A stretch of DNA of 64,000 bases from Bdellovibrionales bacterium (GCA_050249195.1 JBFWQY010000003.1:64023-128022); one strand, 5' to 3'; numbered from the stretch's first letter, positions 5,231-31,289 are shown. Notes: generated by a model not told the origin, from the letters alone. Made by a program: numbers and translations.

Positions 5231-5257
5231 AAAAGGACGCTCACGGAGCGTCCTTTT
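5231..5257. terminator. Bidirectional rho-independent terminator between convergent genes
   Basis: Perfect 12-bp stem AAAAGGACGCTC / GAGCGTCCTTTT with a 3-nt loop. It is A-rich on one flank and followed by TTTTGATTT on the other. It lies between the stops at 5184 (+) and 5313 (-). Confidence 0.7.
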
Positions 5258-5312
5258 GATTTATTTAGGTCAGGTCATGATGCTTGAGGATGGAACTCTT
5301 CCCAAGCCAGCT

Positions 5313-6029: not shown

Positions 6030-6331
6030 CTGTAAACTCCTCCTCAAAGCAATCATCGTTACTTTTTCACCCAACCCCTTTGTCGGTTTCTGCGTCTGAT
6101 AGGTCGGCTGCTGTTCAGCCAAAAAGCTGTGCAAAGTTAATGCCCCAAGTTAGGGCTTTCTTTGCTCTTCTTGAATCCCTTCAGTTCTCCCTCGTCTCCA
6201 AATAAAGCCCATTCAGGGACCCGAGAGACAAAAACCGGCACGTCAGAAGACCTTTTCCTATAATCGAGTCGGGCTCAAACTTTCAAACGCCTTTGTAAAA
6301 AAGTTCGCCCGTATCGCGCCATTAGAAAAAA

Positions 6332-15714: not shown

Positions 15715-17838
15715 TCAGCCCAACTCATCCAATTTGAAAACAAGCGACTTCAGGCGTGCTTTCTCCGCCAAAATCTCGTGGCAGGAGACCTCGTCACCGG
15801 CTTGAGATGGTTTGCGGAGCCGGTAAGACCCATCAGCATCCATATCCCAAGCCAGACGGCGGTCATTAAGCAGAATTTGCAAGGACTCCCAAATCTTCTC
15901 GCGCGCGGACCTGTCCTCCACCGGCACGACCACCTCAACTCGTCCCAAGAGATTGCGCGACATCCAGTCGGCGGAGCCAATAAAGAAGCGCCCCTCAATC
16001 TCGTGTGCGGCCGCTGACCGGAAATAAAAGACGCGGGAGTGCTCAAGAAACGGACCCACGATGGAGATCACTTGGATATTTTCACTCAATGAGGTCACAC
16101 CGGGACGAAGACAGCAAAAACCGCGCACGATCAAGCGCACGGAAACGCCCGCTTGTGAAGCCGCGTACAAGGCCTCGATCATATTTCTGTCCTCAAGGCT
16201 GTTGCATTTAATGAAAATACCGCTGGGACGGCCGTTGCGCGCATTTTCAGCCTCTTGCTGGATCATCTCCAAAAACCGCGATTTCATATTGATCGGCGCC
16301 ACAAGAAGGTGATTGTAATCCGTTTTGAGCGAGCGGCCGGTCAGATAATGGAAGACCTGGACCACTTCATTGGTGAGTTCGGCTCGTGAGGTGAGCAGGC
16401 CCATGTCGGTGTAAACCTTGGCGGTCTGCGAGTGGTAATTGCCTGTGCCGATATGGACATAGGAGCGGAATTCATCGCGCTCGCGCCGCACCACGAGAGC
16501 CAGTTTCGCATGGGTCTTCAGTCCTACGATCCCGTACACCACATGGACGCCTGCTTTTTCCATGGCCTGCGCCCAGTGAATGTTGCGTTCCTCATCGAAG
16601 CGGGCCTTGAGTTCCACCAGGCACACGACCTGCTTGCCAGCTTCCGCCGCGCGAATCAAGGCATTGACGATCGGGCTTTCTTCATTTGTCCGATAGAGAG
16701 TCATTTTGATGGCGACGACGGCCGGGTCATTCGCGGCTGAAACGATAAAGCGCTCCACACTGGTGGTGAAACTCTCGTAAGGCAGGTGAACAAGAATATC
16801 AGTTCCTCGGAGGATACTGAAGATGCTGGCGCTTTCATCCGCCAGCGGACTTATGGTGACGGGATTCCATGGTCTAAACTTCAGGTGAGGAAAATTGAGA
16901 TTGGCGACCGGCGACAGATTCTTGTACTCCATTGCCACTGGATACTCATAGACATCGTCGGCCGTCAGATCGAGTTCGTCCATCAGGAAATCCAACAGCC
17001 AAGGGTCGGGTGACGGGCCGTGTTCGAGGCGTACAACTTCGGCGAAACGCCGCTGTTTCACTTCCTCCTCGATGAGTTCCAGAAGATCCTCGGCATCCTC
17101 GTCATCGGTTTCAATATCGGCGTTGCGGGTCACGCGAAAGGCCATGACGTTGTTGATCTGCATCCGTGGAAAAAGCTGGTCGAGATGATGCTTCACGATT
17201 TCAAGAATGCTGACGATACGCTCAACACCTGGCTCTGTATCCGGAATGCGAATCCACGCGGGAAAGATATCGGGCACCTTAATGCGCGCGAAGAGAAGTT
17301 CCTCTTCATTGGGAGCTTTTAAGGAAACCGCGAGCGAGATTGAAAGATTAGAAATGAGCGGGAACGGATGACCGGGATCAACAGCCATCGGGGTTAGGAC
17401 GCTGAACACGCGGTCACGAAAGAAGGCGTGCGCCCACTCCTTTTCTTTGGGCTCCAGATCCTTCCACGTCAGTAAAAAAACCTTTTGTTCTTTAAGTTGG
17501 GGAAGGAGATCCTCCACAAGTAAGCGGCGGATATCATCACCAAGAGCCAACACCTCGCGCCGCAGGAACTTAAGCTGGTCCTCTGGCGTGAGCCCGTCCG
17601 CCGAAACCGTGGAGATGCTGGCGTAGTGTTGGCGCTGCAGTCCCCCCACGCGCTTCATGAAGAATTCATCCAGATTGGAGTGGAATATGTTTAGAAAACG
17701 GACGCGTTCGAGGAGCGGATTGCGTTCGTCCTGCGCCTGGAAGAGCACACGCTGGTTGAATTTGATCCAACTCATCTCTCGATTTAAAAACAGTTGGGGA
17801 GAGGCCGCGGGGGCGCTGGTGCTCATAGGCGCCAGCAT
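15715..17838 (-). CDS. ppk: Polyphosphate kinase 1
   Basis: FLNREMSWIKFNQRVL...NLDEFFMKRV is the canonical PPK1 N-terminus. The 707-aa length and two PLD-like C-terminal domains also fit. Confidence 0.95.
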   Translation of the reverse strand: MLAPMSTSAPAASPQLFLNREMSWIKFNQRVLFQAQDERNPLLERVRFLNIFHSNLDEFFMKRVGGLQRQHYASISTVSADGLTPEDQLKFLRREVLALGDDIRRLLVEDLLPQLKEQKVFLLTWKDLEPKEKEWAHAFFRDRVFSVLTPMAVDPGHPFPLISNLSISLAVSLKAPNEEELLFARIKVPDIFPAWIRIPDTEPGVERIVSILEIVKHHLDQLFPRMQINNVMAFRVTRNADIETDDEDAEDLLELIEEEVKQRRFAEVVRLEHGPSPDPWLLDFLMDELDLTADDVYEYPVAMEYKNLSPVANLNFPHLKFRPWNPVTISPLADESASIFSILRGTDILVHLPYESFTTSVERFIVSAANDPAVVAIKMTLYRTNEESPIVNALIRAAEAGKQVVCLVELKARFDEERNIHWAQAMEKAGVHVVYGIVGLKTHAKLALVVRRERDEFRSYVHIGTGNYHSQTAKVYTDMGLLTSRAELTNEVVQVFHYLTGRSLKTDYNHLLVAPINMKSRFLEMIQQEAENARNGRPSGIFIKCNSLEDRNMIEALYAASQAGVSVRLIVRGFCCLRPGVTSLSENIQVISIVGPFLEHSRVFYFRSAAAHEIEGRFFIGSADWMSRNLLGRVEVVVPVEDRSAREKIWESLQILLNDRRLAWDMDADGSYRLRKPSQAGDEVSCHEILAEKARLKSLVFKLDELG

Positions 17839-17842: not shown

Positions 17843-18967
17843 TCAAACGCTCAAGAACTGAATCAGGATTTCTTTTTGTTTCATCAGGTCGTAGTAACCC
17901 AAGTCAACGAGTTCGTTTAGATATACAGGATCAAACGTGAGATAGGACAGGATCTCCGCAGACTCGCGCGGGCTTCCCAGGCTGGACATCAGGAACCGCA
18001 ACATCGGAGGCAGCGCTTCCGCCCGCACTTCCGCCAGATCCGCGGGGGCTTGTGAGGGCTGGAAATGAACAATGTGGATCTTGCGAAAATTTTCGACCTT
18101 GGAGGCGATTTGAAGGTTTTCATTAATGATCCGAACACGTTCGATATCGACTTCAATCGCGTCCATAAAAAGCGCGTTCAAGACTACGCTGAGCACCCGA
18201 CCCAGTGTGGGGTTCACAATATTGGCTTCACTCAGACTTTCATCCTTTTGCTTACGTACGCCGATCACGATGATTTTGGAGGCGCCCACTTTGCGTGCGG
18301 GACTGAGCGGGGTATTGTTGCGCAAGCAGCCATCTCCGAAGTGGCGTTTACCCACGGGCCAGGGAGGAAAGAAGACGGGAATAGAGGCCGACGCCATAAC
18401 ATGATCAATGCCGATGGCTTCGCGGATCCCGATACGATGAACCCGTTTCCATTCTTTGAGTTGAGGTGCCCCCATAAAGAAGGTGACACCGATCGCGGTT
18501 GAATAATCTGTCGCCGTAACAGAAAGGCTATTCAGCCGGTTTTCCTCGATATGGCTATGAATTCGCGGAAACTCAATATGGGTGGCCAGAAGATCGCGCA
18601 AAGGTTCGACATTGAGGAGGCCGAGTTTCGAAGGTCGGAGAGATCCGGCGACCCCTCCAAGGGAAACTGCGCGCAGGACCCGCAAAGCGGTACGGCTCAC
18701 CGTCACATAGTCGGTCCGGAAGACGTCCTTGGTTGTGAGTTCGCGCCACATCCGGCACATGCGTTCAGTGGCACGGTTGAGATCGTCGGCTTCAGCTGCC
18801 AGGTAGGTCGCATTGATCGCGCCCGCACTCACGCCAACGAGATTGCGAAACGGCGCGAAGTTGCCCGCTTCCGCGCACACTTCGTAAATAGCGCGAAGGG
18901 CGCCCGCCTGATAGGCGCCTCGCGCACCCCCACCCGAAAGCACGATCGCAAAGTCGTTGTTATACAT
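17843..18967 (-). CDS. Patatin-like phospholipase
   Basis: Oxyanion motif LSGGGARG, nucleophile motif GVSAGA and a downstream DG dyad motif (FGDG). The stop lies 4 nt before the ppk start. Confidence 0.9.
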   Translation of the reverse strand: MYNNDFAIVLSGGGARGAYQAGALRAIYEVCAEAGNFAPFRNLVGVSAGAINATYLAAEADDLNRATERMCRMWRELTTKDVFRTDYVTVSRTALRVLRAVSLGGVAGSLRPSKLGLLNVEPLRDLLATHIEFPRIHSHIEENRLNSLSVTATDYSTAIGVTFFMGAPQLKEWKRVHRIGIREAIGIDHVMASASIPVFFPPWPVGKRHFGDGCLRNNTPLSPARKVGASKIIVIGVRKQKDESLSEANIVNPTLGRVLSVVLNALFMDAIEVDIERVRIINENLQIASKVENFRKIHIVHFQPSQAPADLAEVRAEALPPMLRFLMSSLGSPRESAEILSYLTFDPVYLNELVDLGYYDLMKQKEILIQFLSV

Positions 18968-19057
18968 AGATCTATTCTGTACTGATCGCGCGCAAAATCA
19001 AAGACGCAAAATCAGCACTGCGGATCTGATTTCGAACGTGTTTAGGCGACACATCTT

Positions 19058-19921
19058 TTAGAAGTCCGCGATAAGCTCGACCAGCTCGGGGTGATCGATA
19101 AACGGATTACGATCCCTCTGCTTTTCAAAAATGGCTTCGTTCCGTTCCTGCTCCAGCTCGTCGACGGGATCCGTTCGATGCCAGGCCTTAAGGCTGTCTT
19201 CTTCAATCTTGGACACGGCGAGCTTGTAGCGGACGGAAAAATAAAACACGGCGCGGGCGGCATTGCCCTTATGTTCGGTTGGGACCTCAAAGTACTGTTC
19301 ATGGCTGCCTGAGTTGACGTAGCCCCTACGGGACTCCGTACAGGGGGCTGAGGTCACACTGACGACGTCGCCGAACTCCAAATTGCCACGGGAGGAATTT
19401 GCTTTGGAAAGCACGGGGTAAAGGATGTGCAGATCCGAACGCTGCATGCCTCGGTCGAACTTGGAAGTGAAGCGGCTCTGGGGCCATGTGTGTTCCGCGT
19501 TAAGAACACTGTGATCGGGAATTTGGCCAGGTCCTGGGGGTGTTCCCGAGAACTCGTCCTCACCCGTAGTGTGATTGCAATACACGTCCTTGATCGCATA
19601 CCCTCGACGCGTTTCCAGAAGGTGAAGTTCACCAAAGAGGATCTGCCGGGCCCGGGTGTAGCCGAGACTCAGGTGGTGGTAGCAGCCGCGCGAACCTTTA
19701 TCGCAACTGGACAAAATCTGGTCGTGGGACTCAGTCGGAATGTGCGCGGAACTGAGGATTGTGAAGAGGAGATTTTTGAGCGGCCGGTCGCGGGTTCCAT
19801 TCTCAATATCTTGATAAAAATCTTCGGGATAATAGGCGCGACGGTCATTCAGACGACTGGCATTTGCTGCTGCCGCAAAGATCCCAAGAAATATCACCGC
19901 GACCGTCGATACTCGGCTCAC
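19058..19921 (-). CDS. Secreted endonuclease I family DNase/RNase
   Basis: Signal peptide, then NAEHTWPQS, DLHILYP...NSSRGN, GNAARAVFYF and RNPFIDHPEL, which match EndA/Vvn-type endonuclease I. Confidence 0.85.
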   Translation of the reverse strand: MSRVSTVAVIFLGIFAAAANASRLNDRRAYYPEDFYQDIENGTRDRPLKNLLFTILSSAHIPTESHDQILSSCDKGSRGCYHHLSLGYTRARQILFGELHLLETRRGYAIKDVYCNHTTGEDEFSGTPPGPGQIPDHSVLNAEHTWPQSRFTSKFDRGMQRSDLHILYPVLSKANSSRGNLEFGDVVSVTSAPCTESRRGYVNSGSHEQYFEVPTEHKGNAARAVFYFSVRYKLAVSKIEEDSLKAWHRTDPVDELEQERNEAIFEKQRDRNPFIDHPELVELIADF

Positions 19922-20040
19922 TTGCCCTCCCCCTTTTTAGCTTTATGTACAAGCCTATTGCGGGAGAGGGGCAACGTGGAAAGGTGTATTGCAGGACTAA
20001 CAGAAAACAAACACCAACCTGGACCATAGTCCAGGTCTTA

Positions 20041-20433
20041 TCACTTACATGTGAATCCAGCCTCTTCGAGACGGCCTTTGATCTTCTCCTGGGTGCTTTC
20101 ACAATGGCTGGTGCCATTCACACTGGACGCGACAACAGCCTCCTGTCCATTCTTGGTGTAAGCCAGTTCACAACCCGAGTCGGTCTTGCGAATTTCCAAA
20201 AAGCGCTCATCGCCCTTAACGGAACATTCCATCCTTTCGCCAGTGGCTTCGCTTTTGGTCTTGGCCTCGGGAGTGGCCTTTCCCGCCTCCGCGGATTTGG
20301 ATTCCGCCGGTGCTTGGCTCTGCTCGGTTGCTTTTTCCGGTGCTGTGGCCGCCGTGTCTTCACTCTTGTCCTTTGACGAGCATCCAGCTGCTGCAAACAG
20401 ACCGATTGCGGCGATGATGACCCACGTACGCAT
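20041..20433 (-). CDS. Small lipoprotein with 4 Cys (unknown function)
   Basis: MRTWVIIAAIGLFAAAGCSS is a signal peptide with a lipobox. A Lys/Glu/Ala-rich linker precedes a roughly 65-aa Cys-containing domain. Confidence 0.75.
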   Translation of the reverse strand: MRTWVIIAAIGLFAAAGCSSKDKSEDTAATAPEKATEQSQAPAESKSAEAGKATPEAKTKSEATGERMECSVKGDERFLEIRKTDSGCELAYTKNGQEAVVASSVNGTSHCESTQEKIKGRLEEAGFTCK

Positions 20434-20553
20434 TGTTACCCTCCTTGGTTGTGACTGCCGAACCCCAGTCTATAGACACCGGTTTGCAACTGTCAAAACA
20501 CCCACCAACCAAAGTCTCGTGGAAGATTCGTCTCATTCTGCCGATCTCATACA

Positions 20554-22164
20554 TTGATGTCCGGTGGAAGTTTGAAAGTAAAAATATTTGATGCGAATGG
20601 AACTCAGGTCCATCCCGTTGCGAAGTCCACGCTGACCGTGGGATCCGCCGCGCATTGTGACATCGTGCTGGATCATCCGTCTATGGACGGTGAACACGTG
20701 CGTGCGTGGCTTGAGGGCGGCCGGATCTGGGTACAGGATCTGGGCACCGGAACGGGCACCTTTTTAAATGGAATTCGACTACCGCCGCTCAAACCCATGT
20801 TGGTGCGCGATCTTGATATTTTGAAGATGGGCGAATGTCCCGCCACTCTCGGTCTTGAAGTTAATCTGGTGCGCGCACCCGTGGTGAAGACGCGAATCGC
20901 GATGGATGAAATCACGTTAACCGACATCAAGCCCCTGGTTCCGAAAGATTCGGAATTGGAAAGTAAGCGCGAGGAACTTGCCGCCGTCAGCCGAGAACTG
21001 GCGGAATTGAAACTCCAGCTCCAGATGGGGCGGATGGAAAAAGAAACCGATGATCAGAGTCAGCAAATCAAAGAGTTGCGCGCCGACAATGAAAAATTGG
21101 TCGAGCATGTTCACCAGTTGGAGCGTGAGAAGTCGAGTCACCGGAAGGTCCTGGAGACGGAAATCGCCGAGTTGAAGCTCAAGGCCTTGCGCGACCTTAA
21201 AGACTTAAAGGATGAAGAAGCACGAAAGTTTGCGACGTGGAAAGTGAATCTCGTTTCCGACCTCACGCGGAACTTGCGCGACCTCAGTCTGCGCAAGGGC
21301 AAGGCGTGGGACGGCCGCGCGGTCGACCGGGACTTGATGATGGAATGGGAAGCCGAAATGAATCATTTCTTCCGAAGGTGGATCTTGGATGAGCACGAGC
21401 CGCAGCCGGTTCATCAGCCCCTTCAGTCGGACATTCCGACCCAACAGATCCCGGTCGCCACATCCGAGCGGCCGCTTCTGGACCGGCGGTCGGGCCGGCC
21501 TCGTCGGCGCCAACGATCCTCCGCTTTAGCGATGCCCGCCGCGGTGACGGCGGCGGCTCTCACGGCTGTCATGGGAATTTGGTTTGTGGTGCGCTCGTTC
21601 CGCAGCCCGGCTCGCCCACCCGCGGGTGTTGTCGCCCTTGCGCCGGCGCCAGCGTCAGCGCGCGCACCCGCTCAGCTTCCGCCGGCGTCAACACCCGCGC
21701 GCGCAGTACCCCATGGGTCTGGATCAAAACCGGCTGCGACACGGCCATCGAATGTCTATCAGCCCGCGCAAACGTCGAGCTACAAAACGAGCTACACGGA
21801 CAATACCCTTTACACGTTGGGATTCCTTGAGTCCGAAATGAAGCCGGATTTTCGCAAAGGTTGGCTCGCGGAATTGAATCGCACCGCCCAGAAGGACTGG
21901 AAGCTAAAAGGTCCGACGGTGACCGCGATCGCGACGCAAGAAATGGCCCTTCTTCGAGACCTTCAGAAGCTACAATCGGCCATTCGCGCCAACGATGTGA
22001 GAGAGGGAATCAAGAGAATGCGCCAGCGTGAAGACCGCTTTGAACAGGATCTGGAACGATTGCTCGGAAATAAAGCATTGCTCGCCAAGTTCCTACGATT
22101 GAAACGCGATTTTTATTCACGTCACGTGGCTCGCCTGAGTCAACCCGCGCGTGGACGCCGCTAA
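20554..22164 (+). CDS. FHA-domain protein with coiled coil, one TM helix and a Pro/Ala-rich C-terminal part
   Basis: N-terminal FHA signature (TVGSAAHCDIVLDHPSMDGEHVRAW...GTGTFLNG). A heptad-like charged region follows, then the TM segment AAVTAAALTAVMGIWFVV. The start is TTG 20554 or ATG 20557. Confidence 0.85.
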   Translation: MMSGGSLKVKIFDANGTQVHPVAKSTLTVGSAAHCDIVLDHPSMDGEHVRAWLEGGRIWVQDLGTGTGTFLNGIRLPPLKPMLVRDLDILKMGECPATLGLEVNLVRAPVVKTRIAMDEITLTDIKPLVPKDSELESKREELAAVSRELAELKLQLQMGRMEKETDDQSQQIKELRADNEKLVEHVHQLEREKSSHRKVLETEIAELKLKALRDLKDLKDEEARKFATWKVNLVSDLTRNLRDLSLRKGKAWDGRAVDRDLMMEWEAEMNHFFRRWILDEHEPQPVHQPLQSDIPTQQIPVATSERPLLDRRSGRPRRRQRSSALAMPAAVTAAALTAVMGIWFVVRSFRSPARPPAGVVALAPAPASARAPAQLPPASTPARAVPHGSGSKPAATRPSNVYQPAQTSSYKTSYTDNTLYTLGFLESEMKPDFRKGWLAELNRTAQKDWKLKGPTVTAIATQEMALLRDLQKLQSAIRANDVREGIKRMRQREDRFEQDLERLLGNKALLAKFLRLKRDFYSRHVARLSQPARGRR

Positions 22165-22216
22165 ACCCACTTACTGATTGACTTCATTCCCTTCACCGGA
22201 GATGACCTAAGAATCC

Positions 22217-23257
22217 ATGAAGATTCTTATCATGCGCTTCTCGAGCTTTGGCGACGTCCTTCAGACGTTGAGCGTGGCGGGGCGGTTGGGGCAAACGTTT
22301 CCACAAGCGGAGATCCATTGGGTGACGCGTGAGGAATTCGTGCCTTTGATTTCCACTCATCCACGCGTGACGAAAGTATGGAGCCTGCGTAAAGGAGCGG
22401 ACTTCACTGATCTGCTCAAGCTCGGACATCAGTTGCGACGGGAGCATTTCACGCATGTTTATGATGCTCATAATAATTTGCGCTCGCACCTTCTCGGCCT
22501 GCAGCTGAAGGGATTTCTCTCGTGGCGGGTATGGACAGGCCGCGTGCGGTTCTTACGACGCTCGATCTTTCGTTGGCGCCGTTTCCTTTTGTTCCAGTTC
22601 CGTTGGAATTTGTTTCCAAAGCCCTTTTCCGGCCAGAAGGCTCTGCTGGCACCGTTAGCGGCGTGGGGCGTACCGGATCAAGCTCCGGATGTGCCTCAGC
22701 TCTTTTTGTCAGGCACAGATTCCTCGCGGATTCCGCGCGAATGGACGCGGTATGTGGCATTGGCTCCCTCCGCAGCATTTGAGCTCAAACGTTGGCCGCT
22801 TGAGTACTGGAAGGAGCTCATCCGGATGTCGACGGAGCTGCATTTCGTTGTATTGGGCGGTCCCGAGGATCAGTTCCTTAAAGAACTCGAACCGATTGCG
22901 CCCGATCGTGTGATCTGTCTGGCCGGGCAAATGGATTTACTTGAGAGCGCGCGAGTGGTGGCCTCAAGCCAGGCTCTGGTGGCGAACGACACGGGACTGA
23001 TGCATGTGGCGGAGCAAATCGGGAAGCCGTGCGTGGCGCTGATGGGACCCGCTCCATTCGGCTTTCCCTGTCGCGAACGGACGATTGTGATGGAATTGGA
23101 TCTGGCGTGTCGCCCGTGCAGCAAACATGGACAAGGGCCGTGCGTGAATCCGGAGTATCAAAAATGTCTGCGCGGGATTCCTCCCCAGGACGTGGTGAAA
23201 CAGTTGAGGAGGGTGCTGCATGCCAAACTGGATGCGCCGATATCTGCGGAGCCGTGA
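22217..23257 (+). CDS. Glycosyltransferase family 9 (LPS heptosyltransferase-like)
   Basis: MKILIMRFSSFGDVLQT N-terminus, and ANDTGLMHVA...G in the C-terminal half, as in RfaC/RfaF-type enzymes. Confidence 0.85.
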   Translation: MKILIMRFSSFGDVLQTLSVAGRLGQTFPQAEIHWVTREEFVPLISTHPRVTKVWSLRKGADFTDLLKLGHQLRREHFTHVYDAHNNLRSHLLGLQLKGFLSWRVWTGRVRFLRRSIFRWRRFLLFQFRWNLFPKPFSGQKALLAPLAAWGVPDQAPDVPQLFLSGTDSSRIPREWTRYVALAPSAAFELKRWPLEYWKELIRMSTELHFVVLGGPEDQFLKELEPIAPDRVICLAGQMDLLESARVVASSQALVANDTGLMHVAEQIGKPCVALMGPAPFGFPCRERTIVMELDLACRPCSKHGQGPCVNPEYQKCLRGIPPQDVVKQLRRVLHAKLDAPISAEP

Positions 23258-24731
23258 CCTCCGCGCTCATTTCTGGACGGCCTTAGCCTTAGGAGCTCTG
23301 TTCCGTTTTTTTTCTGCCTACTTCGTATATGGCCCGCAGGCTTTGGATGACTACAAACACGGGGTATGGCCGGCATGGCAATTTTGGGCGGGGATCCCAC
23401 TGGATTTGCCGGAGTATCGAAGTCATCTCTTGGTTTGGTTGTTGAGTGTTTTTATTGAGATAGGATCCTGGTTTGGAGTGAGTTCGGCGTTGGGACAAGT
23501 GCGCGCCATGTATATGGGATTGGGCGCTCTCAGCCTTCTTGGGATCTATGGCACCTATTTGTATGTGCGCCGTGATCGCGATCCGCGCTTCGGGCTCTTT
23601 GCGCCCCTTGCTCTTTATCTGATCGCGCTCTTTCCCCTGATGCCGTTTGTGGGGACCCGCGCCTTCGGTGAGGCGGTGGCGCTGTCACTGGTTGTGTTAT
23701 CCTTCGGAATTCTGGAGGAGACGCGGCGTACGCGTTCGCGTCAGTTTCTTTGTTGGATGGTGGGCTTTGTGATTTTGGGAATCGCGACACTGTTCCGTTT
23801 CCACGTGGGCCTCTTGTTCTTTAGCTATGTTGGCGTTTTGCTGGTGCTGCACCAGTGGCGGGGGATTGCGGGTGCCGCCGTCGCGGGGGGCCTGACCTTG
23901 GCTGCCCAGGCCGCGGTGGACATCGGCAGTGGAAAACAGGCGTTTGAAACGCTGAGGGTGTACCTGGCTGAGAACGCGGGGGGCGGAGCCAAGTACGGCG
24001 TGAGCCCTTGGTACAATCCCTGGCTCTTTGTCCTCGGGATTGCGTTGGCTCCATTTGCTTTTGTGCTGTTCGGCCATCTAAGGGGATTGTGGCGCCGACG
24101 CTGGCCCGTGTTGGTCCCCTTTCTTGTTTTTGTTGCGGCTCACAGTGTGGCCGCGCACAAAGAGGAGCGGTTTCTATATCCCATCATCGGACTGGAACTC
24201 TGGGCGGTCGCGGATCTGTGGGCCTGTGCGGCCCTGAGCCGATGGGCGCGCCGGATCTATGCGCCCGTGGCCCTTTTCGTCGGAGTTCTGGGATTGGTGG
24301 TCGTGTCTTTTGTAAACACGCAAGAAGGGGAGATCGAGCCACCCGCCTACGTGGAGTCCACATACGACAGTGTCGTGTATCTGGATTATGAATCCCTTTT
24401 TGGTCGATCACGTTTTCAGTTTTACTTTTTGCGCCCTCCGAGCGTGCTTGAGAAAATGGACGACCCGGGAGATTTTCAGGCTCACCGAGTGGATGAGGCC
24501 CTACTGTCTCATCCAGATCACCATGCCGCCGTGCTTTTGACCTCGGACCCCACAGCTTACGTGGAGCTGCGAGCCTTGGAAGGAGTTCAGACTCTAGCCG
24601 GACGTTGTCTGCGGGTGCGCGAAGCCGGCTCCTTAATTGACCGGCTCCTTTACAAGATGAATCCCAAGCACAATCAGCGGCGGCGTCCAACCTGGTATCT
24701 GGTTTGTGAAAGGAACAGTCATGCTCCTTGA
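23220..24731 (+). CDS. Polytopic GT-C glycosyltransferase, GT22/Alg9-PIG-B-like (putative polyprenyl-P-mannose dependent mannosyltransferase)
   Basis: More than 10 hydrophobic helices. First-loop acidic motif DDYKH (23346-23360) and HKEERF (24156-24173), which matches the HKExRF signature of GT22. Overlaps the GT9 gene by 38 nt. Confidence 0.7.
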   Translation: MPNWMRRYLRSRDLRAHFWTALALGALFRFFSAYFVYGPQALDDYKHGVWPAWQFWAGIPLDLPEYRSHLLVWLLSVFIEIGSWFGVSSALGQVRAMYMGLGALSLLGIYGTYLYVRRDRDPRFGLFAPLALYLIALFPLMPFVGTRAFGEAVALSLVVLSFGILEETRRTRSRQFLCWMVGFVILGIATLFRFHVGLLFFSYVGVLLVLHQWRGIAGAAVAGGLTLAAQAAVDIGSGKQAFETLRVYLAENAGGGAKYGVSPWYNPWLFVLGIALAPFAFVLFGHLRGLWRRRWPVLVPFLVFVAAHSVAAHKEERFLYPIIGLELWAVADLWACAALSRWARRIYAPVALFVGVLGLVVVSFVNTQEGEIEPPAYVESTYDSVVYLDYESLFGRSRFQFYFLRPPSVLEKMDDPGDFQAHRVDEALLSHPDHHAAVLLTSDPTAYVELRALEGVQTLAGRCLRVREAGSLIDRLLYKMNPKHNQRRRPTWYLVCERNSHAP

Positions 24732-25362
24732 GTTTCTTCTCCGGCTTGATTATCGGCTTTTATTTCTCTTGAACGTGCGCTGGGCGAATCCCGGTTTGGA
24801 TCCATTGTGGCTGACGGTGACACAGCTTCATAAGCAGGCCTGGTTTGTTACGATTGTGTTTCCTCTTCTCCTGTTCGCACTGTTTTATACATATAGGATG
24901 CAGGCTCTCAAAATCCTCATGGTTACGGGTTTGGCCGCAGGCATCAGCGACACTCTGGCGTATCGGGGAGTGAAATCGCAGGTGAAGCGTCAACGACCTT
25001 TTCAAAATCAGGAGATCTCAGCGCAAGTGCGCAAAGTGGGAGAGGCGCATGGGCCAAGTTTTCCCTCCAATCATGCGGCGAATGTGTTCGCGGGTGCCGT
25101 TATCTTGGCGTGGTACATCCCGCGACTTTGGATTATCTTTTACAGTTTTGCTCTTCTTGCCGCGGTGAGTCGAGTCGTCCTGGGCGTTCATTATCCTTCG
25201 GATGTGATCGCGGGCGCGATCCTGGGCATCCTCGTCGCGCTCCTTATTCGCGTCACATTGCTAAATCGATGGAAATGGCTCTGGCTCGACCAAGATGTTC
25301 CGGAATCCGACACGCAAAGCGCGGGTTGGAGAGCAAGAATTCGACGCCTCAATGAACATTGA
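24721..25362 (+). CDS. PAP2-family lipid phosphatase (LpxE/LpxF- or PgpB-like)
   Basis: All three PAP2 motifs are present: KSQVKRQRP, PSNH and SRVVLGVHYPSD. The ATG at 24721 follows AAGGA. Overlaps the upstream gene by 11 nt. Confidence 0.88.
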   Translation: MLLEFLLRLDYRLLFLLNVRWANPGLDPLWLTVTQLHKQAWFVTIVFPLLLFALFYTYRMQALKILMVTGLAAGISDTLAYRGVKSQVKRQRPFQNQEISAQVRKVGEAHGPSFPSNHAANVFAGAVILAWYIPRLWIIFYSFALLAAVSRVVLGVHYPSDVIAGAILGILVALLIRVTLLNRWKWLWLDQDVPESDTQSAGWRARIRRLNEH

Positions 25363-25462
25363 CAGTTTATCCTAGAAAAACGCCGCCTCCGTCGAGCTCT
25401 CGACCTGAGGCCAGGTATATCGGTTGCACAAACCTTCTCACTGGGAAGAGGGGGGCAGTCCT

Positions 25463-26149
25463 ATGGAAACCATTCGCGTCTTGGAGCGGGTCACCGGAAG
25501 TCTATTAATTATGTTTATGTTCAGCGTCGTCGGTTGCGGCCAGGGGTTCCGCGGGCAGGCGGAGTTCGCTCAGATTGAGACGAAATCGATCGATGATCAG
25601 TTGGCGAAAGCGGAAGAAGCCAAACTTCTCGCCGAAAAGGCCATCGATGAGGCTCATGCGGCCGTGAGTGAGATTACCGACGAAAATGGCAATATAAAGG
25701 TGGGTCTGTTCTCATCGGGATCGGGTTCGTCCTCGACGACGCGTTCGAAGCTCTTTTTTAATGGCCTGATCGAAAAGCTACGAAGTGTGTTTGATACGGT
25801 CTTTGCTCGTGCCGAAGAGGTGAAGGAACATTTTGAGCTCGCACGCGACAAGCTGGAGGAGGCGATGGACCTCCTCGATAAAAACGATCCTGAGCAGGCG
25901 GAGCGGATTGAGCAAATAAAGGACAAACTGGCCTACATTGATGAACTCGAACTGGAATTCTCCGAATCTATGCACAAGCTCTCCGACAAACTGGGAGTCG
26001 CGGTCAGCGGCCTTGAAAAAATCATTTCCGGCGTCACAAGTTTTATTCCCGGATGGGGATGGCTGGTGAATTTGGCTCTGGATTATCTTGTTATGAACGA
26101 GGTGAAAGATCTTGTTCTTGATCTGAGAGTCAAGCTCTTAAGTCTGTAG
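25463..26149 (+). CDS. Secreted or membrane-anchored coiled-coil protein (unknown function)
   Basis: ATG 25463 follows a G-rich SD. Hydrophobic N-terminus LLIMFMFSVVGCG, a long charged helical region, and a C-terminal hydrophobic segment FIPGWGWLVNLAL. Confidence 0.65.
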   Translation: METIRVLERVTGSLLIMFMFSVVGCGQGFRGQAEFAQIETKSIDDQLAKAEEAKLLAEKAIDEAHAAVSEITDENGNIKVGLFSSGSGSSSTTRSKLFFNGLIEKLRSVFDTVFARAEEVKEHFELARDKLEEAMDLLDKNDPEQAERIEQIKDKLAYIDELELEFSESMHKLSDKLGVAVSGLEKIISGVTSFIPGWGWLVNLALDYLVMNEVKDLVLDLRVKLLSL

Positions 26150-26161
26150 AACTGGCCGTTT

Positions 26162-26539
26162 TTACTTTTTGAGATCCTCGCCACGAAGAAACTTCTTGTA
26201 GGCCTCGATCGCCTGCACATTCTCCGTGGCGTATCGAAACTCCATATTAGGATCTTGCCCAAGGCCCCAGCCGAAAAGAGTTGTGAGCACGGCCCCGTGA
26301 TTGTAAAGCTCGGCTAGATAAGTTTCCATGGACTTGGAATTGCCAATGTTGGCTCCTTCCGCCAGTGCCCAGCGTTTGACTTTTTCTGATTTCAAAGTCG
26401 TAAAAAGGTCTTCCATTCCACCAGCTGAGATCCATGCGGAGTAAATGCTGAAGCCCGGGTTCAGGGTTGGCTGGATCTTTGTGTCACCAAACGGATCAAG
26501 ATATGACATGTTCCATTGTGAGACGGACGCGAGACTCAT
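26162..26539 (-). CDS. Hypothetical 125-aa protein
   Basis: ORF with protein-like composition and no signal peptide. Divergent from the HNH gene. No motif recognised. Confidence 0.5.
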   Translation of the reverse strand: MSLASVSQWNMSYLDPFGDTKIQPTLNPGFSIYSAWISAGGMEDLFTTLKSEKVKRWALAEGANIGNSKSMETYLAELYNHGAVLTTLFGWGLGQDPNMEFRYATENVQAIEAYKKFLRGEDLKK

Positions 26540-26627
26540 GCGAGATCCATCGTGCGAGATACCAGATCTTGAGGTCCAGTGCGGACTTGATTTACGTAAG
26601 CTCTTGATTCAAGATTAAAATTAGGGG

Positions 26628-27179
26628 GTGGGAGTCGCCCTAAGGAGGCTAGCCTTCAATAGGAGCTTATCCGGTGCCTTGGTACTCAACTCGGGGTACG
26701 AGCCGATCAAGGTTGTGAGCTGGCGCAAGGCCATGATCCTTTGGTTTCAGGATAAAGTGGAAGTTCTAGAATATCATTCCACGACCGTTTCCTCTCCCAG
26801 TCAAACCTTTCAATTACCCGCCGTCATGCGATTGAAAGTGTACATTCGGCCTTATCTCTCGTTGTCGGTGCGCTTATCGCGTCAAAATATTTTCCTGCGC
26901 GATGGCCATATCTGCCAGTACTGCTGCCAGAAGTTTTCGGAAAAGAAACTCACTGTCGATCATGTGATTCCCCTGAGCAAGGGTGGGCGCCATGAGTGGA
27001 CCAATGTGGTAACAGCTTGCTCGGAATGTAATAATCGCAAAGGTGACAAAACTTTGGAGCGGGCCAATCTGAGGCTGCTCACGCGCCCACAGAAACCAAG
27101 CTGGCTGCCCAATCGCGATCTCGAAGTCGAGGACAATCGACTGCCGCAGTCCTGGCGGCCCTATCTAGCTTCACGATAA
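26628..27179 (+). CDS. Stand-alone HNH endonuclease
   Basis: CQYC...DHVIPLSKGGRHEWTNVVTACSECNNRKG gives the HNH core with two CxxC pairs. The N-terminal LVLNSGYEPIKVVSWRKA is typical of a widespread solo HNH family. The start (GTG 26628) is uncertain. Confidence 0.88.
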   Translation: MGVALRRLAFNRSLSGALVLNSGYEPIKVVSWRKAMILWFQDKVEVLEYHSTTVSSPSQTFQLPAVMRLKVYIRPYLSLSVRLSRQNIFLRDGHICQYCCQKFSEKKLTVDHVIPLSKGGRHEWTNVVTACSECNNRKGDKTLERANLRLLTRPQKPSWLPNRDLEVEDNRLPQSWRPYLASR

Positions 27180-27306
27180 ACTCGGATCCAAAGGGACTTT
27201 GGGTGCACATTCATGAAACCGCGCGATCAAGAAATCGCGCAAATACTGTTGGCCGGCGATTGCGAAACCACCGGCGATCTTCTCAAGGCTAACTCAGAGA
27301 CTAAGA

Positions 27307-28109: not shown

Positions 28110-31100
28110 TTAATGAACCTCGTCAAGGATCTCGGACTGGGCATCCCCATCCGCACCGCTACGCATAAGCGGGTTGAACGGATAATAAAGAACCAATTTT
28201 CCTTCGCCTGTGCCTTTTTCAAAATTGAGAGATGCGCCCTGGGCGGACACTACTGGGGCTTCGGGCATTCCGAAATACGGCTGCTCGGTTAGCGTTCCGG
28301 GAATGAAGGTCCATTCACCCAATCCCTCACCCAGATAGTCGTCAGATTCAATCATGTTTTCGTTGCCTCCGACGGACGCCAATTTGATTCGGATACGGCC
28401 GTCCTCCGCTCTCAATAATTTCTCCACAGGGGTTTCGATCAGGGCAATTGTGGACTGGGTGAAAGGAGCCATCCCACCCTGGTGGATGAGCGCTGTTTCG
28501 TAATTCAAGCTGCCTTCACGTCCCTCATTGATTTCCTTTTCATATGCCAACCGGATTTCGCGCGCCTTCTTCGCATCCAGAAGGACTGAGGCGAAGACAG
28601 CGGATTCGGGAGTTTCCGCGCTGAGGCCGGCCACTCCCGCAAGCTCTTGGTCAGCAACGTCGTCCCCATCACCATCAATCAGCACGGAAACTTCGCACAG
28701 ATGCCATGTGGTGACGGGCGTAAAGAGCTTAAACGCAAACTGAATCACTTCTTTCGGACCTTGCGAATCGCCTTGGTTCTGTTTGCGCAGAATACGGTAA
28801 CCCGCGGACTGGAGATCACAGCTCCGGCTCCTCCACTGCTGAGTGGGACGCGCTTCTGGTTTGCGCGCGTCTTCGCCGATAAGATTGAAGGCCAGCGCGA
28901 GCCCATTAACCGCGCTCGCGTTCGTGAGCTGGATAGAACCAGCCCTTGTGGAAGCCTCCACACTCCGGATTTCTGAAGACTGGGTGCGAATGGCCAATGC
29001 GGGAATTTGCGCAACGATGCGCTCGCCCTGCATAAAGAGAATTCGTCCGTTCAGTTCGGTCTGAAACTGGTCGCGCTCTTCGAGAGCGTAAGAAATCCGA
29101 ATGGAAACTTCCACTTCCTCTCCCGCCGCGAGATGGATGCTTGCGGGGACGCCTAAGCGCAGGCCAGGCGTGGTTTGCGTGTTCGTCGTCAAAGCGAGGG
29201 GCTCATCCGAGATGTTGCGCAATCTGACTGTTCGCGATGTGCGCTGCTGACCACGCAGCTGCACGCGTCCCAGACTCAGTCCTTGAGGAGAAACAACGAG
29301 CGGAGCGTCGAGAGCCTCGGCAATCCGCACACGTCCGGCGCCTTGGAGCGAGATTGGAATCTGTCCCTGCGGCGTGGATAAAACTTTAGCCGTGTTCATG
29401 ACTAAAGATTTGAAATCCTCAGGTCCAAGTTTGGGGTGGCGCTGTTTGAGCAGCGCCACCACACCGGTCAGATGGGGCGCGGCCATGCTTGTTCCATTGA
29501 GGGCCACCGAATCATCACCTTCACCCATGGCGGCGGAGATCACTTGCTGACCGGGCGCCGCGACTTCCGGCTTCAGGAGGTTGTCTTCGGACCGCGGCCC
29601 CTTTGACGAGAACTCCGTGATCGTATCAATCAATTCAGGCTCTTCGATGACTTCGCCCGTTTTGAATTGGATGTGAACCGGACCTTGTGTCAACTCGCTC
29701 TTCAATTTCAGTCCCAGGGCCTGGCTGATCATAATCGCGGGGATATCGACTTTGCCGTCTCCACCCATGGGAATGGGCTTGCCCGGCTCGCTGTTATACA
29801 CGACGGCTCCTACCGCACCCGCTTCGCTGGCCCGCTTGAGCTTGTCAAGGAAAGGGACCTTCCCTCGCACAATCAGCGCAACCTTACCCTGAAGCCGAGC
29901 CTTGACAGGGTCGGGGAGGTCCGCGTCTGCAAGTCCGATATCCACCAACTCGCCCTCGGCCGAGTCAACTTCCTTAATGGGTTTGGAGATCGCGCCTTCA
30001 ATCGCTTTTGCGATCCAATTGGATCCGTCCGGACTGGTGAAGCGCACGGCTGCGAATTGCCAATTGTGAGGAGAACCATCGATGCTCGCCGCCACGGAGA
30101 TCGCCTCATTGGAAGTGGATGGGGCTCCGACAATGTAATCCACGGGACCTGAGTTGCCAGCAGAGGCCACGATCACGGTACCGGCATGCGCGAGATTCTT
30201 AACCGCTTCCGTATACAAGATTTGAGGCTGGCCAAACCCGCCACCCAAGGACAAATTGATGGCGTCGAGTTGATCCGTGGGATCCAAATCTCCGTTGGGA
30301 TCGGCCACATATTCGAAACCCGCAATCACAACGGCGTCCGAGGTGGAGCCCGCCTTACCAAAGACTTTGACAGCGTAGATTTGCGCATCCGGGGCCACGC
30401 CCGTGTAGGTGTTGCGCCCGTCTCCTATACCTGCGATAGTTCCCGCGACGTGTGTCCCATGTCCCGCCTCATCAATTGGGTTGGCATCGGGATGGGGCAA
30501 ATGTTCGGCTGCGAATGGCGATGCGGCATTGAAGTCGCTGCCTGCGAGGTCAACTCCGCCCACGACCTTCGCGTTCGGGAAATGGGCCGAGGGTCGGGCG
30601 GGATCAATGGCGGTGAAATCCTCTTTTTTTCCTGAACCTCCCAACATCAAGTGAGTGTAATCCACTCCGGTATCCAACACGCCCACACGCACACCGCGTC
30701 CGCTGATTCCGCGATCGCGGGCAGCTTGAGCGCCAATGAACGTGACGGAGTTCACCAGTTCCGGTTGAGCGCGACCTTCGGTTTCAGCCGCGAAGGTTTG
30801 AGGGCGCGCAAACGGACGGGCGGGGCTGACTCCTTTCACTCCCGGCAAGCGCTCCAGAGCGGGTTGCATATCACCGGTTGCAAACACGGCCAGGCCATTG
30901 ATCACCATGCGGTAGCGGAAAACAATTTGAGTTTCCGGCGCCAGCTGCTTGAGGCGGCTTTCGAACTCGGCCTGCTCGGCAAGCAGTTTCTGTTTGGCTT
31001 CGGCGGGGACTTCCCATCCATTTTCTGTCTTTCGCGCACTGACAAGGAGTGGTGGTGATTCGAGCGTGACCACCATAAGCTCGGCGGTGGCCGCGATGGG

Positions 31101-31289
31101 GCGGTTGCTAAAAATATCTTCCGACGGCGAGTCCAGTTCAACAACCGGTTTACTTTGAGTGCAGGCACTCACACTCAATATGAGAACAACGAAAAGCACT
31201 CTGAAGTTCAATTTCAAGCTGAAGCTCTTGATTGACGCTGAAACCCCCAGTAGCGACTGAAAGTTCTTGCGTCGTCGGTACGCCGCCAT
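28110..31289 (-). CDS. Subtilisin-like serine protease (peptidase S8) with inserted PA domain and long C-terminal extension; probable lipoprotein
   Basis: Catalytic triad motifs VGVLDTGVD, HGTHVAG and GTSMAAPH. PA-domain-like LQGKVALIVRG...AGAVGAVVYN lies between His and Ser. N-terminal VLILSVSAC is a lipobox. Confidence 0.93.
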   Translation of the reverse strand: MAAYRRRKNFQSLLGVSASIKSFSLKLNFRVLFVVLILSVSACTQSKPVVELDSPSEDIFSNRPIAATAELMVVTLESPPLLVSARKTENGWEVPAEAKQKLLAEQAEFESRLKQLAPETQIVFRYRMVINGLAVFATGDMQPALERLPGVKGVSPARPFARPQTFAAETEGRAQPELVNSVTFIGAQAARDRGISGRGVRVGVLDTGVDYTHLMLGGSGKKEDFTAIDPARPSAHFPNAKVVGGVDLAGSDFNAASPFAAEHLPHPDANPIDEAGHGTHVAGTIAGIGDGRNTYTGVAPDAQIYAVKVFGKAGSTSDAVVIAGFEYVADPNGDLDPTDQLDAINLSLGGGFGQPQILYTEAVKNLAHAGTVIVASAGNSGPVDYIVGAPSTSNEAISVAASIDGSPHNWQFAAVRFTSPDGSNWIAKAIEGAISKPIKEVDSAEGELVDIGLADADLPDPVKARLQGKVALIVRGKVPFLDKLKRASEAGAVGAVVYNSEPGKPIPMGGDGKVDIPAIMISQALGLKLKSELTQGPVHIQFKTGEVIEEPELIDTITEFSSKGPRSEDNLLKPEVAAPGQQVISAAMGEGDDSVALNGTSMAAPHLTGVVALLKQRHPKLGPEDFKSLVMNTAKVLSTPQGQIPISLQGAGRVRIAEALDAPLVVSPQGLSLGRVQLRGQQRTSRTVRLRNISDEPLALTTNTQTTPGLRLGVPASIHLAAGEEVEVSIRISYALEERDQFQTELNGRILFMQGERIVAQIPALAIRTQSSEIRSVEASTRAGSIQLTNASAVNGLALAFNLIGEDARKPEARPTQQWRSRSCDLQSAGYRILRKQNQGDSQGPKEVIQFAFKLFTPVTTWHLCEVSVLIDGDGDDVADQELAGVAGLSAETPESAVFASVLLDAKKAREIRLAYEKEINEGREGSLNYETALIHQGGMAPFTQSTIALIETPVEKLLRAEDGRIRIKLASVGGNENMIESDDYLGEGLGEWTFIPGTLTEQPYFGMPEAPVVSAQGASLNFEKGTGEGKLVLYYPFNPLMRSGADGDAQSEILDEVH

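Follow-up and report, generated by a model that had tools for sequence, protein, structure and literature searches.

Neutral sugars in place of the lipid A phosphates alter outer-membrane charge, cationic peptide resistance and innate immune recognition, and the low inflammation caused by predatory bacteria is often put down in part to Bdellovibrio's neutral mannosyl lipid A. Going by the title of Schwudke 2003, Bdellovibrio lipid A reportedly carries alpha-mannose. We found no enzyme in the literature assigned to this mannosyl lipid A, in keeping with an earlier note on the present DNA that knew of none for such chemistry; beyond Bdellovibrio that statement does not hold, as FlmF1, FlmK and LpxF account for lipid A mannose in Francisella (PMC2233673). 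The known GT-C transferases of bacterial lipid A use GalA, Ara4N and GalN as well as Man (PMC7795004, PMC2233673). In Mesorhizobium loti, lpxE adjoins rgtF (PMC7795004), and in Aquifex pyrophilus, the sister species of A. aeolicus, sugars replace both lipid A phosphates (PMC6581854).

GT22 enzymes invert beta-linked Dol-P-Man to give alpha-mannosides, and the eukaryotic members act on lipid-linked glycans and GPI, not on lipid A (PMC13503287). In the ALG9/ALG12 signature, the His contacts the donor mannose (axial C2-OH) and the Arg the donor phosphate; in GT-C_A enzymes, the first helix of loop 1 carries the catalytic base, and ALG9 and ALG12 also have a C-terminal luminal domain, with acceptor contacts coming from a variable module (PMC13503287). 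Our literature search found no biochemical or genetic data on any bacterial GT22.

Here we describe a locus within a 64-kb window (the whole stretch of DNA that was analysed) in which genes for a GT9-like glycosyltransferase, a PAP2 phosphatase and, between them, a GT22-like GT-C transferase of the type with which eukaryotes assemble N-glycans overlap. We propose, with a probability of about 0.5, that this operon is an LPS lipid A/inner-core tailoring module following a periplasmic ‘dephosphorylate, then glycosylate’ scheme; judged from the sequences, it would most likely exchange a lipid A phosphate for a sugar.

Three overlapping genes form a probable operon

Positions 22217-25362 hold three plus-strand genes with overlapping ends, directly downstream of a gene for an FHA-domain protein:

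20554..22164, + strand: FHA-domain membrane protein (PF00498, 1.5e-12), directly upstream with a 52-nt gap
22217..23257, + strand: GT9 glycosyltransferase, heptosyltransferase II-like, 346 aa (PF01075, 6.7e-24)
23220..24731, + strand: GT22-like (ALG9/ALG12/PIG-B type) GT-C_A polyprenyl-phosphate-sugar transferase, 503 aa (PF03901, 1.1e-12)
24706..25362, + strand: PAP2 integral-membrane lipid phosphatase, LpxE-like (PF01569, 2.4e-25, 89 bits)

All three proteins of the operon score above the Pfam gathering thresholds, well beyond chance, and fall into the families that the earlier note had forecast. Its reading of the genes as a probable operon also stands, with the order conserved elsewhere, its coordinates for DDYKH and HKEERF were correct, and the PAP2 motifs KSQVKRQRP, PSNH and SRVVLGVHYPSD are present as it described. 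The GT9 and GT22 genes overlap by 38 nt; the GT22 and PAP2 genes overlap by 26 nt if PAP2 starts at the GTG at 24706 (218 aa) or by 11 nt if it starts at the ATG at 24721. The GT22 start at 23220 is backed by an N-terminus, MPxxLxRYL, that is conserved among homologs, and tight gene coupling was seen again at related loci. The FHA gene, syntenic in nearly all clade loci, is a conserved neighbour of uncertain membership in the module. No lpx or kds gene was found within the 64-kb window, no polyprenyl-phosphate-sugar synthase either there or flanking related loci, and no mannose-pathway gene near the operon.

The GT9 and PAP2 proteins

The GT9 protein scored 85 bits against PF01075 (cut-off 22), matched E. 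coli HepII (1psw) over its full length (1e-18) and keeps the motifs SSFGD (D13) and NDTGLMH. Its best NCBIfam model was HepII (TIGR02195), at 104.7 bits below the cut-off of 134.6, and HepI (89.3 bits, cut-off 185.3) and HepIII (59 bits, cut-off 170.2) were below theirs. No TM segment was predicted, so this soluble protein should act at the cytoplasmic face. Assigned to family level, it points to the LPS inner core.

The PAP2 protein carries a tripartite active site:

24973..25203, + strand: PAP2 active site, made up of KSQVKRQRP (24973-24999), PSNH (25063-25074) and SRVVLGVHYPSD (25168-25203)

The PAP2 consensus is KX6RP - PSGH - SRX5HX3D (PMC6581854), and the second motif here has N for the G of PSGH. 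Among syntenic PAP2 orthologs, KX6RP and SRX5HX3D were each found in 16/16 and PSNH in 15/16. The best match of solved structure was Aquifex aeolicus LpxE (6ebu; 2.6e-8, residues 28-180, 37 bits). Among NCBIfam models, undecaprenyl-diphosphatases (SepP, PRK11837) matched best, at 57 bits and all below cut-off; the LpxE model PRK09597 reached 17.5 bits (cut-off 177), and the LpxF model gave no match. LpxEs share 13-17% identity among themselves (PMC6581854), a divergence at which sequence cannot assign the PAP2 substrate and a missed LpxE/LpxF equivalog cut-off is weak evidence against lipid A phosphatase activity.

One alternative, which we consider rather unlikely, is that the operon does serve LPS, with the GT22-like enzyme decorating the core (Kdo/heptose) or another periplasmic LPS position and the PAP2 acting as a general undecaprenyl-diphosphate or PGP phosphatase. 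A model for it would be Rhizobium, where RgtA/B/C add GalA to the core. The inner-core indication from GT9, the undecaprenyl-diphosphatase matches, the multifunctionality of LpxE-type enzymes, which act on C55-PP too (PMC6581854), and the presence of just one GT-C and one PAP2 all suit this arrangement, but a GT-C fed by an Und-P-sugar would, from known chemistry, release Und-P and not Und-PP, so that a dedicated pyrophosphatase would be needless. Carrier recycling is also hard to square with locus L015, in an unrelated proteobacterial MAG, where a 48% identical GT22 adjoins a non-orthologous 407-aa PAP2 amid otherwise unrelated genes; the best NCBIfam match of that PAP2 is the lipid A 4'-phosphatase LpxF (86 bits, 2.5e-24).

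The middle protein is a GT22-like GT-C transferase

By family and by fold, the 503-aa protein is a GT22-like GT-C_A enzyme. It scored 48.4 bits against PF03901 (cut-off 23.8), a family matched by 21/21 diverse members (best 3.6e-23). PMT_2 was matched weakly by 6 of 21 relatives (best 2.4e-4), and the Pfam profile search gave no PMT_2 match for the window protein at E<=0.1. An AF2 model (pLDDT 90.2, pTM 0.89) had ALG9 (two entries) and ALG12 (9s6t) as its top three Foldseek matches (E 2.5e-8 to 8.7e-8, TM 0.52-0.60), the best being ALG9 9s6u (2.5e-8, TM 0.56-0.60). ArnT (5f15) came next at 1.8e-5, and PimE was weak (0.12).

ArnT/PMT_2 or O-antigen ligase as the best family, the competing assignment raised by the earlier note, does not hold, with PF03901 matched by 21/21 members and PMT_2 only weakly by 6; nor does HKEERF fall in a non-conserved column. 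The conserved features of the protein are:

23346..23360, + strand: DDYKH, whose acidic pair D43/D44, invariant in A1 and A2, stands at the head of the first periplasmic-loop helix
23640..23672, + strand: MPFVGTRAFGE motif with invariant F143 and R147, aligning with chicken ALG12 F143/R147
23961..24017, + strand: periplasmic loop 4 segment YLAEN...GVSPWYN, with Y248, N252, P263 and W264 invariant
24156..24173, + strand: HKEERF signature, H313-F318 (invariant in alignments of 20 and 21 sequences)
24372..24731, + strand: alpha/beta domain at the C-terminus (about residues 385-503), in which C463/C496 are invariant and NPKHNQRRRP forms a basic cluster

HKEERF, recognised beforehand as a GT22 signature, aligns column for column with donor-site residues of human ALG9 (HKEERF, native H366/R370) and chicken ALG12 (HKELRF, H308/R312). 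H313 and R317 are candidates for contacting the C2-OH of the donor sugar and the donor phosphate, respectively. In the AF2 model, a helix (41-56) with D43/D44 at its start lies directly after TM1, making this pair a candidate catalytic base; its equivalence to ALG9 D82 or ALG12 E35 is a positional match only, as profile alignments to ALG9/ALG12 stop short of DDYKH. The human counterparts of chicken ALG12 F143/R147, F142/R146, are disease residues. Charge/hydropathy topology predicts the HKEERF loop and the C-terminal domain to be periplasmic, on the same side as a PAP2 active site, and the C-terminal domain is a candidate acceptor-binding module.

In the alignment with ALG9, Y248 falls on Y287, a residue lining the donor-mannose site, and GVSPWY on GTEPWY. 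N288 of ALG9, one of the two residues that select mannose, falls on a non-conserved Leu, so mannose is likely but not secured. A donor carrying Glc, GalA, GalN or Ara4N, with only the fold and the phosphate-binding residues common to ALG9/ALG12, would agree with that column, with the use of sugars other than Man by known bacterial lipid A GT-Cs and with the lack of mannose-pathway genes nearby. The His of HKEERF is nevertheless invariant, as is the Tyr matching ALG9 Y287, and all characterised GT22 enzymes are, to our knowledge, mannosyltransferases; we regard a non-mannose donor as fairly improbable. This alternative concerns the sugar alone and overlaps the other readings, and its likelihood is not to be added to theirs.

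Relatives and genomic contexts

An exhaustive profile search placed 286 clusters (50% identity) in the GT22-like family at E<=1e-30. The family spreads across Bdellovibrionota, Myxococcota and Chitinophagaceae, and every member whose source was checked came from a bacterial MAG or metagenome. The description of GT22 as mainly eukaryotic is true only of its characterised members. The closest named proteins and loci belong to Bdellovibrionales/Pseudobdellovibrionaceae MAGs, which bears out, at order level, the guess of a Bdellovibrio-like host. The DNA comes from an uncultured relative of the predator Bdellovibrio, a Bdellovibrionales MAG of Pseudobdellovibrionaceae type.

Where the sequence of a clade locus extended far enough, GT9 stood upstream of GT22 in 20/20 cases and PAP2 downstream of it in 19/19. 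The GT9-GT22-PAP2 order is kept down to ~42% GT22 identity, also at a locus with changed flanks (L016), and translational coupling of GT22 and PAP2 is conserved over the same range. In a sister clade labelled ‘Bdellovibrio sp.’/Oligoflexia, GT22 occurs alone, without GT9 or PAP2. A link to the mannosyl lipid A published for B. bacteriovorus HD100 is missing: a peptide-pattern scan of GTDB species representatives and protein searches found no ortholog in cultured Bdellovibrio/Pseudobdellovibrio (B. bacteriovorus, P. exovorus).

At L079, a HAD - PMT_2 (best match ArnT) - GT22 cluster is divergent from lpxK-kdsB. L015 and L079 are horizontally transferred copies and lend independent support to the lipid A link. 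Several other homologs have GT22 beside unrelated neighbours, and those of Myxococcota and Chitinophagaceae sit among housekeeping genes. That the GT22-like enzyme acts on a non-LPS acceptor (such as a periplasmic or outer-membrane protein, a lipoglycan, a glycosphingolipid or an inositol lipid) and is joined to GT9 and PAP2 through a clade-specific operon accident would fit these many solitary or housekeeping-flanked homologs, the non-lipid A acceptors of eukaryotic GT22 enzymes and the overlap of the family's spread with known bacterial sphingolipid producers, but is quite unlikely given that LPS or lipid A genes form the context in three independent cases (clade loci, L015 and L079), PAP2 coupling kept to ~42% identity and no recurrent non-LPS partner among the loci examined.

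Discussion

If the operon tailors lipid A as we propose, the soluble GT9 enzyme would add a heptose-type sugar to Kdo-lipid A at the cytoplasmic face, and the LPS precursor would be flipped to the periplasmic face. There the PAP2, its active site periplasmic as in LpxE, would remove the 1- or 4'-phosphate of lipid A, and the GT22-like enzyme would move a hexose, with inversion, from a polyprenyl-phosphate donor to the exposed hydroxyl. D43/D44 would be the base, the leaving phosphate would be held by R317 (with R67/R147), and H313/Y248 would set the position of the sugar. That sugar would most likely be mannose, donated by undecaprenyl-phosphate-beta-mannose, and the resulting alpha-mannoside would match the alpha-mannose that Bdellovibrio lipid A reportedly carries. 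We infer lipid A rather than core as the acceptor, mannose as the sugar, and the order of these steps.

The lipid A dephosphorylation/mannosylation module suggested by the earlier note is strengthened by the LpxF-like PAP2 at L015 and the ArnT-like and lpxK-kdsB context at L079. It is weakened by the absence of a synthase from the window and by the operon's count of one phosphatase and one GT-C, against the two modifications that positions 1 and 4' would need.

A more specific claim is tentative, and we hold it to be somewhat doubtful: the Bdellovibrionota GT22-like proteins may be the first bacterial ALG9/ALG12/PIG-B members with an assignable job, as lipid A alpha-mannosyltransferases that, with a co-transcribed PAP2, make the lipid A of uncultured predatory bacteria poor in phosphate and low in charge, and that reached Proteobacteria by HGT. 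If the operon does exchange lipid A phosphate for a neutral sugar, it would be a candidate gene set for this chemistry, GT22 would be a second GT-C family, besides the ArnT type, recruited to lipid A, and bacterial GT22 proteins would gain a first lead to their function. The bacterial GT22 branch may also shed light on how the eukaryotic mannosyltransferases of the ER lumen, ALG9/ALG12/PIG-B, arose.

Comparison with known systems

The window protein belongs to the same Pfam family as ALG9 and ALG12 (and PIG-B/PIG-Z) and, like them, joins a C-terminal extracytoplasmic domain to a GT-C_A core; it keeps HKExRF, the F143/R147 motif and the donor-site Tyr, and inverting transfer from a polyprenyl-phosphate sugar is predicted for it, as for them. 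Unlike them, the window protein is bacterial, and its genomic context ties it to LPS genes; identity to them is only ~15%. Neither Dol-PP-GlcNAc2Man(n) nor GPI can be its acceptor, and C463/C496 and NPKHNQRRRP are its own family's invariants in the C-terminal domain/variable module.

Aquifex aeolicus LpxE, the best solved relative of the window PAP2, likewise has the complete PAP2 catalytic motif, but with PSGH where the window protein has PSNH. ArnT (GT83, PMT_2) is also a lipid A-modifying GT-C and the second-best structural match, but adds Ara4N to the phosphate rather than in its place. We know of no HKExRF counterpart in ArnT.

In LpxE-RgtF of Mesorhizobium loti and LpxF-RgtD of Rhizobium leguminosarum, as proposed here, a PAP2 lipid A phosphatase is encoded beside a GT-C that places a sugar at the phosphate site, both facing the periplasm (PMC7795004). 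RgtD and RgtF, however, are ArnT-type (GT83-like) and use dodecaprenyl-P-GalA from RgtE, whereas the window enzyme is GT22-like, probably transfers mannose and has no donor synthase close by. LpxF/FlmK/FlmF1 of Francisella novicida provide a genetically supported route by which a phosphatase, an Und-P-Man synthase and a GT-C place phosphate-free mannose on lipid A (PMC2233673), but FlmK is a PmrK/ArnT homolog, not a GT22, and the genes do not form a GT9-GT-C-PAP2 operon. By analogy, the operon described here would follow the logic of LpxE-RgtF or LpxF-FlmK with a GT-C of a different family.

Overlapping GT9, GT22 and PAP2 genes

Three genes on the + strand encode, in order, a heptosyltransferase-like protein, an ALG9/ALG12-like GT-C glycosyltransferase and a lipid phosphatase, referred to below as GT9, GT22 and PAP2.

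Reading frames of the trio
22217-23257, +, GT9, 346 aa
23220-24731, +, GT22, 503 aa
24706-25362, +, PAP2, 218 aa (GTG start; alternative ATG at 24721)

These positions are those reported in the earlier note, the motifs it named translate where it placed them, and its forecast of Pfam families was borne out, each match exceeding the gathering score: PF01075 for GT9 (6.7e-24), PF03901 for GT22 (1.1e-12, residues 67-364) and PF01569 for PAP2 (2.4e-25). GT9 and GT22 overlap by 38 nt, and GT22 and PAP2 by 26 nt with the GTG start or 11 nt with the ATG. A promoter and terminator consensus scan of 20000-27300 gave counts no higher than in shuffled sequence and was uninformative on operon boundaries, so the evidence for co-transcription lies in the overlaps and their conservation. 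The gene before GT9 on that strand, separated from it by 52 nt, encodes an FHA-domain protein (20554-22164, +, 536 aa) with a coiled coil and a predicted transmembrane segment. Its synteny extends to nearly all loci of the clade, and it may be regulatory or co-transcribed with the trio.

Within the window clade, GT9 was upstream of GT22 at 20 of 20 loci and PAP2 downstream at all 19 with sequence there. The gene order is kept down to about 42% GT22 identity, and at one locus (L016) despite different flanks. A sister clade labelled ‘Bdellovibrio sp.’/Oligoflexia (30-38% identity) carries GT22 alone among unrelated neighbours. Around homologues of 25-30% identity in Myxococcota and Chitinophagaceae, where ORF calls were noisy in high-GC DNA, the only recurrent neighbours were housekeeping genes (tadA, serS and dnaX), and the gene contexts of four further homologues (P0140, P0142, P0116 and P0128) were uninformative.

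GT22 resembles ALG9 and ALG12

Two alignments of the GT22 family, of 20 and 21 sequences (33-68% identity), share the invariant residues H313-K-E-E-R-F318 and D43/D44, along with R67, R147, Y248, N252, P263/W264, C463 and C496; F143 is invariant in the first and conserved in at least 90% of the second. NCBIfam has no model for the family. A confident AlphaFold2 model built from the alignment (mean pLDDT 90.2, pTM 0.89) found its best PDB fold matches in human ALG9 and chicken ALG12 (E 2.5e-8 to 8.7e-8; TM 0.52-0.60), both 2026 cryo-EM structures (PMC13503287). A profile search of PDB sequences returned ALG9 (2e-6) and ALG12 (1.9e-5) only, aligning HKEERF with HKEERF of ALG9 and HKELRF of ALG12. 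The profile was needed: the single GT22 sequence gave one spurious match (0.37).

All 21 family members match PF03901; 6 of them also give weak matches to PMT_2, the ArnT family. In fold, ArnT (1.8e-5) comes after ALG9 and ALG12 and ahead of the oligosaccharyltransferases. A PimE-like GT87 enzyme was rejected, with no Pfam match and PimE a weak fold match, as was an O-antigen ligase, with no Pfam match to Wzy_C. The GT22 assignment survived this comparison, with the HKEERF column invariant, and by sequence and modelled fold the middle protein belongs to the GT22-type GT-Cs.

Several conserved residues coincide with functional positions in these structures. ALG9 contacts its donor through H366, which hydrogen bonds to the axial C2-OH of the mannose, and through R370, which coordinates the phosphate, with ALG12 H308/R312 as counterparts (PMC13503287); ALG9 PDB chain numbering is native plus 6, so H366 and R370 are the H and R of HKEERF. 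GT22 F143/R147 align with ALG12 F143/R147, the counterparts of human disease residues, and the invariant Y248 aligns with ALG9 Y287, which lines the mannose site (PMC13503287). The column of ALG9 N288 holds a non-conserved Leu in the GT22 family, with the invariant N252 one helical turn off. The catalytic base of GT-C_A enzymes lies in the first helix of loop 1 (PMC13503287), and in the model D43/D44 open helix 41-56, straight after TM1; they are a candidate catalytic base, equivalent by position rather than by alignment. Both the loop carrying HKEERF and the C-terminal alpha/beta domain of 140 residues are predicted to be periplasmic, judged by hydropathy and the positive-inside rule; ALG9 and ALG12 likewise have a luminal C-terminal domain.

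When 1.84 billion representatives were searched exhaustively with an HMM, the number of matching clusters fell from 4050 at E<=1e-3 through 1952 at <=1e-10 to 286 at <=1e-30. About 58 clusters form a core with scores above 318 bits, after which scores fall to 260 bits. Members whose source was checked were metagenomic or MAG singletons, and a literature search yielded no published characterisation of a bacterial PF03901 protein.

GT9 and PAP2

GT9 aligns over its full length with E. coli heptosyltransferase II (1psw, 1e-18), keeps the N-terminal GD (D13) and NDTGLMH motifs and has no predicted transmembrane segment; it scores below every NCBIfam heptosyltransferase equivalog cut-off. Residues 298-317 (window 23108-23167) contain a four-cysteine cluster (CRPCSKHGQGPC...C), conserved in 17/17 orthologues and aligned to a cysteine-free stretch of the E. 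coli enzyme, which may be a metal-binding insert.

The PAP2 active site is complete (KX6RP, PSxH and SRX5HX3D), each motif being conserved in 15-16 of 16 orthologues. Its C2 motif (25063-25074) reads PSNH against the canonical PSGH; the Asn is kept in 15 of 16 orthologues, the other having PSSH. Among solved structures, its best relative is LpxE of Aquifex aeolicus (6ebu, 2.6e-8), and the best NCBIfam matches are undecaprenyl-diphosphatase models, with the LpxE model at 17.5 bits. LpxE enzymes share 13-17% mutual identity and also act on C55-PP (PMC6581854), so the protein sequence is insufficient by itself to settle the PAP2 substrate.

GT22 near LPS and lipid A genes in other genomes

In an unbootstrapped neighbour-joining tree, two GT22 copies (loci L015 and L079) fall beside the window clade, yet lie in proteobacterial genomes. 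In L015 (UBA3588, GC 64%), where ergothioneine and c-di-GMP genes make up the flanks, the gene after GT22 (48% identity) runs convergently to it and encodes a PAP2 of 407 aa, non-orthologous to the PAP2 of the window (BLASTP 24 bits). In NCBIfam this protein best matches the lipid A 4'-phosphatase LpxF (86 bits, 2.5e-24) and ‘PAP2 family lipid A phosphatase’, in each case short of the cut-off. In L079, a Burkholderiales MAG, 3605-7449 encodes a HAD-IB phosphatase, a 553-aa PMT_2 protein (best match ArnT) and then GT22, divergent from lpxK-trm112-kdsB and with yhdP nearby. The pairing of two distinct GT-Cs suggests a cluster that modifies lipid A or core with two sugars. Counting the window clade, GT22 is independently associated with LPS or lipid A genes three times, which is the chief support for the acceptor assignment.

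The host and Bdellovibrio lipid A

The earlier note had guessed at a Bdellovibrio-like host, which holds at order level: the closest protein, a partial entry with 100% identity, belongs to a ‘Bdellovibrionales bacterium’ MAG, and related loci come from MAGs titled Bdellovibrionales or Pseudobdellovibrionaceae. The organism is, however, uncultured and not B. bacteriovorus. The proposed bridge to the published mannosyl lipid A of Bdellovibrio could not be made. A peptide-pattern scan of GTDB species representatives, requiring exact HKEERF[LM]Y or YGPQALDD, detected no orthologue in cultured Bdellovibrio or Pseudobdellovibrio, and a k-mer-limited homologue search seeded from a ‘Bdellovibrio sp.’ MAG and cluster look-ups of second-tier representatives likewise returned MAGs only; these are non-detections rather than proof of absence. 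As no cultured genome was detected, the family is not yet tied to B. bacteriovorus HD100, to our knowledge the sole organism of the group with a known lipid A. HD100 lipid A is reportedly modified at two positions, against the one phosphatase and one GT-C of the trio. The 64-kb window holds no polyprenyl-phosphate-sugar synthase, second PAP2 or lpx/kds genes, and we found no paper assigning enzymes to Bdellovibrio lipid A mannosylation.

Other genes in and around the window

Upstream of the operon lie ppx (13303-14328, -) and ppk1 (15715-17838, -), the latter kept in position in two related loci (L081 and L082). In a Thiohalomonadaceae locus (L014, 2302-7804), GT22 abuts a putative phoU-pstBACS cluster, judged by gene size and order. 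Genes of phosphate metabolism are found near GT22 in more than one lineage, and phosphate limitation might conceivably be connected with phosphate-free lipid A.

Hydrolase genes flank the operon (17843-19921, -, and 28110-31289, -) and keep their synteny in related loci: a patatin-like phospholipase, a secreted endonuclease I and a PA-domain subtilase of 1059 aa. As a set they are in keeping with a predatory lifestyle. A stand-alone HNH endonuclease (26628-27179, +, 183 aa) is 76-83% identical across loci, against 35-70% for its neighbours, and stays near the operon despite rearranged order (L004, L006 and L017). Two overlapping genes at 40995-43408 (-), one for a 459-aa membrane O-acyltransferase of the MBOAT family and the other for a 350-aa protein lacking a Pfam match, may form a polysaccharide or envelope O-acylation pair; beside them lie a ZnuA/ABC-3 cluster for metal uptake and a gene resembling beta-barrel porins. 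Large ORFs within 6332-10534 (-), 36742-39579 (+) and 59968-63673 had no Pfam match at E<=1e-5: a 1400-aa protein, a + strand three-gene cluster with overlapping ends (285, 309 and 361 aa) and proteins of 524 and 647 aa.

Proposed function and precedents

The earlier note had proposed that the trio could replace lipid A phosphates with mannose or decorate the core, a reading that our results support in part. We put the probability that it tailors LPS lipid A or core, in the broad sense, at about 0.75, and consider the odds roughly even that it does so by lipid A dephosphorylation followed by glycosylation. Our inference as to acceptor, sugar and sequence of steps is as follows. GT9 would act on Kdo-lipid A at the cytoplasmic face; after the precursor is flipped, PAP2 would take off one lipid A phosphate, and GT22 would transfer a hexose, with inversion, from a polyprenyl-phosphate donor. 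In this scheme D43/D44 would serve as base, the phosphate would be held by R317 together with R67/R147, and the sugar would be placed by H313/Y248. Because the mannose-contacting His and Tyr are invariant, this sugar is probably mannose, in which case the product would be an alpha-mannoside. The comparative evidence on the trio is coherent, and the lipid A hypothesis is directly testable.

Two known systems follow the same logic with GT-Cs of a different family: lpxE and rgtF are adjacent in M. loti (PMC7795004), and LpxF, FlmK and FlmF1 put mannose on Francisella lipid A (PMC2233673). The ‘phosphatase plus GT-C’ logic of lipid A tailoring is therefore known; an ALG9/ALG12-type enzyme in that role would be the new part.
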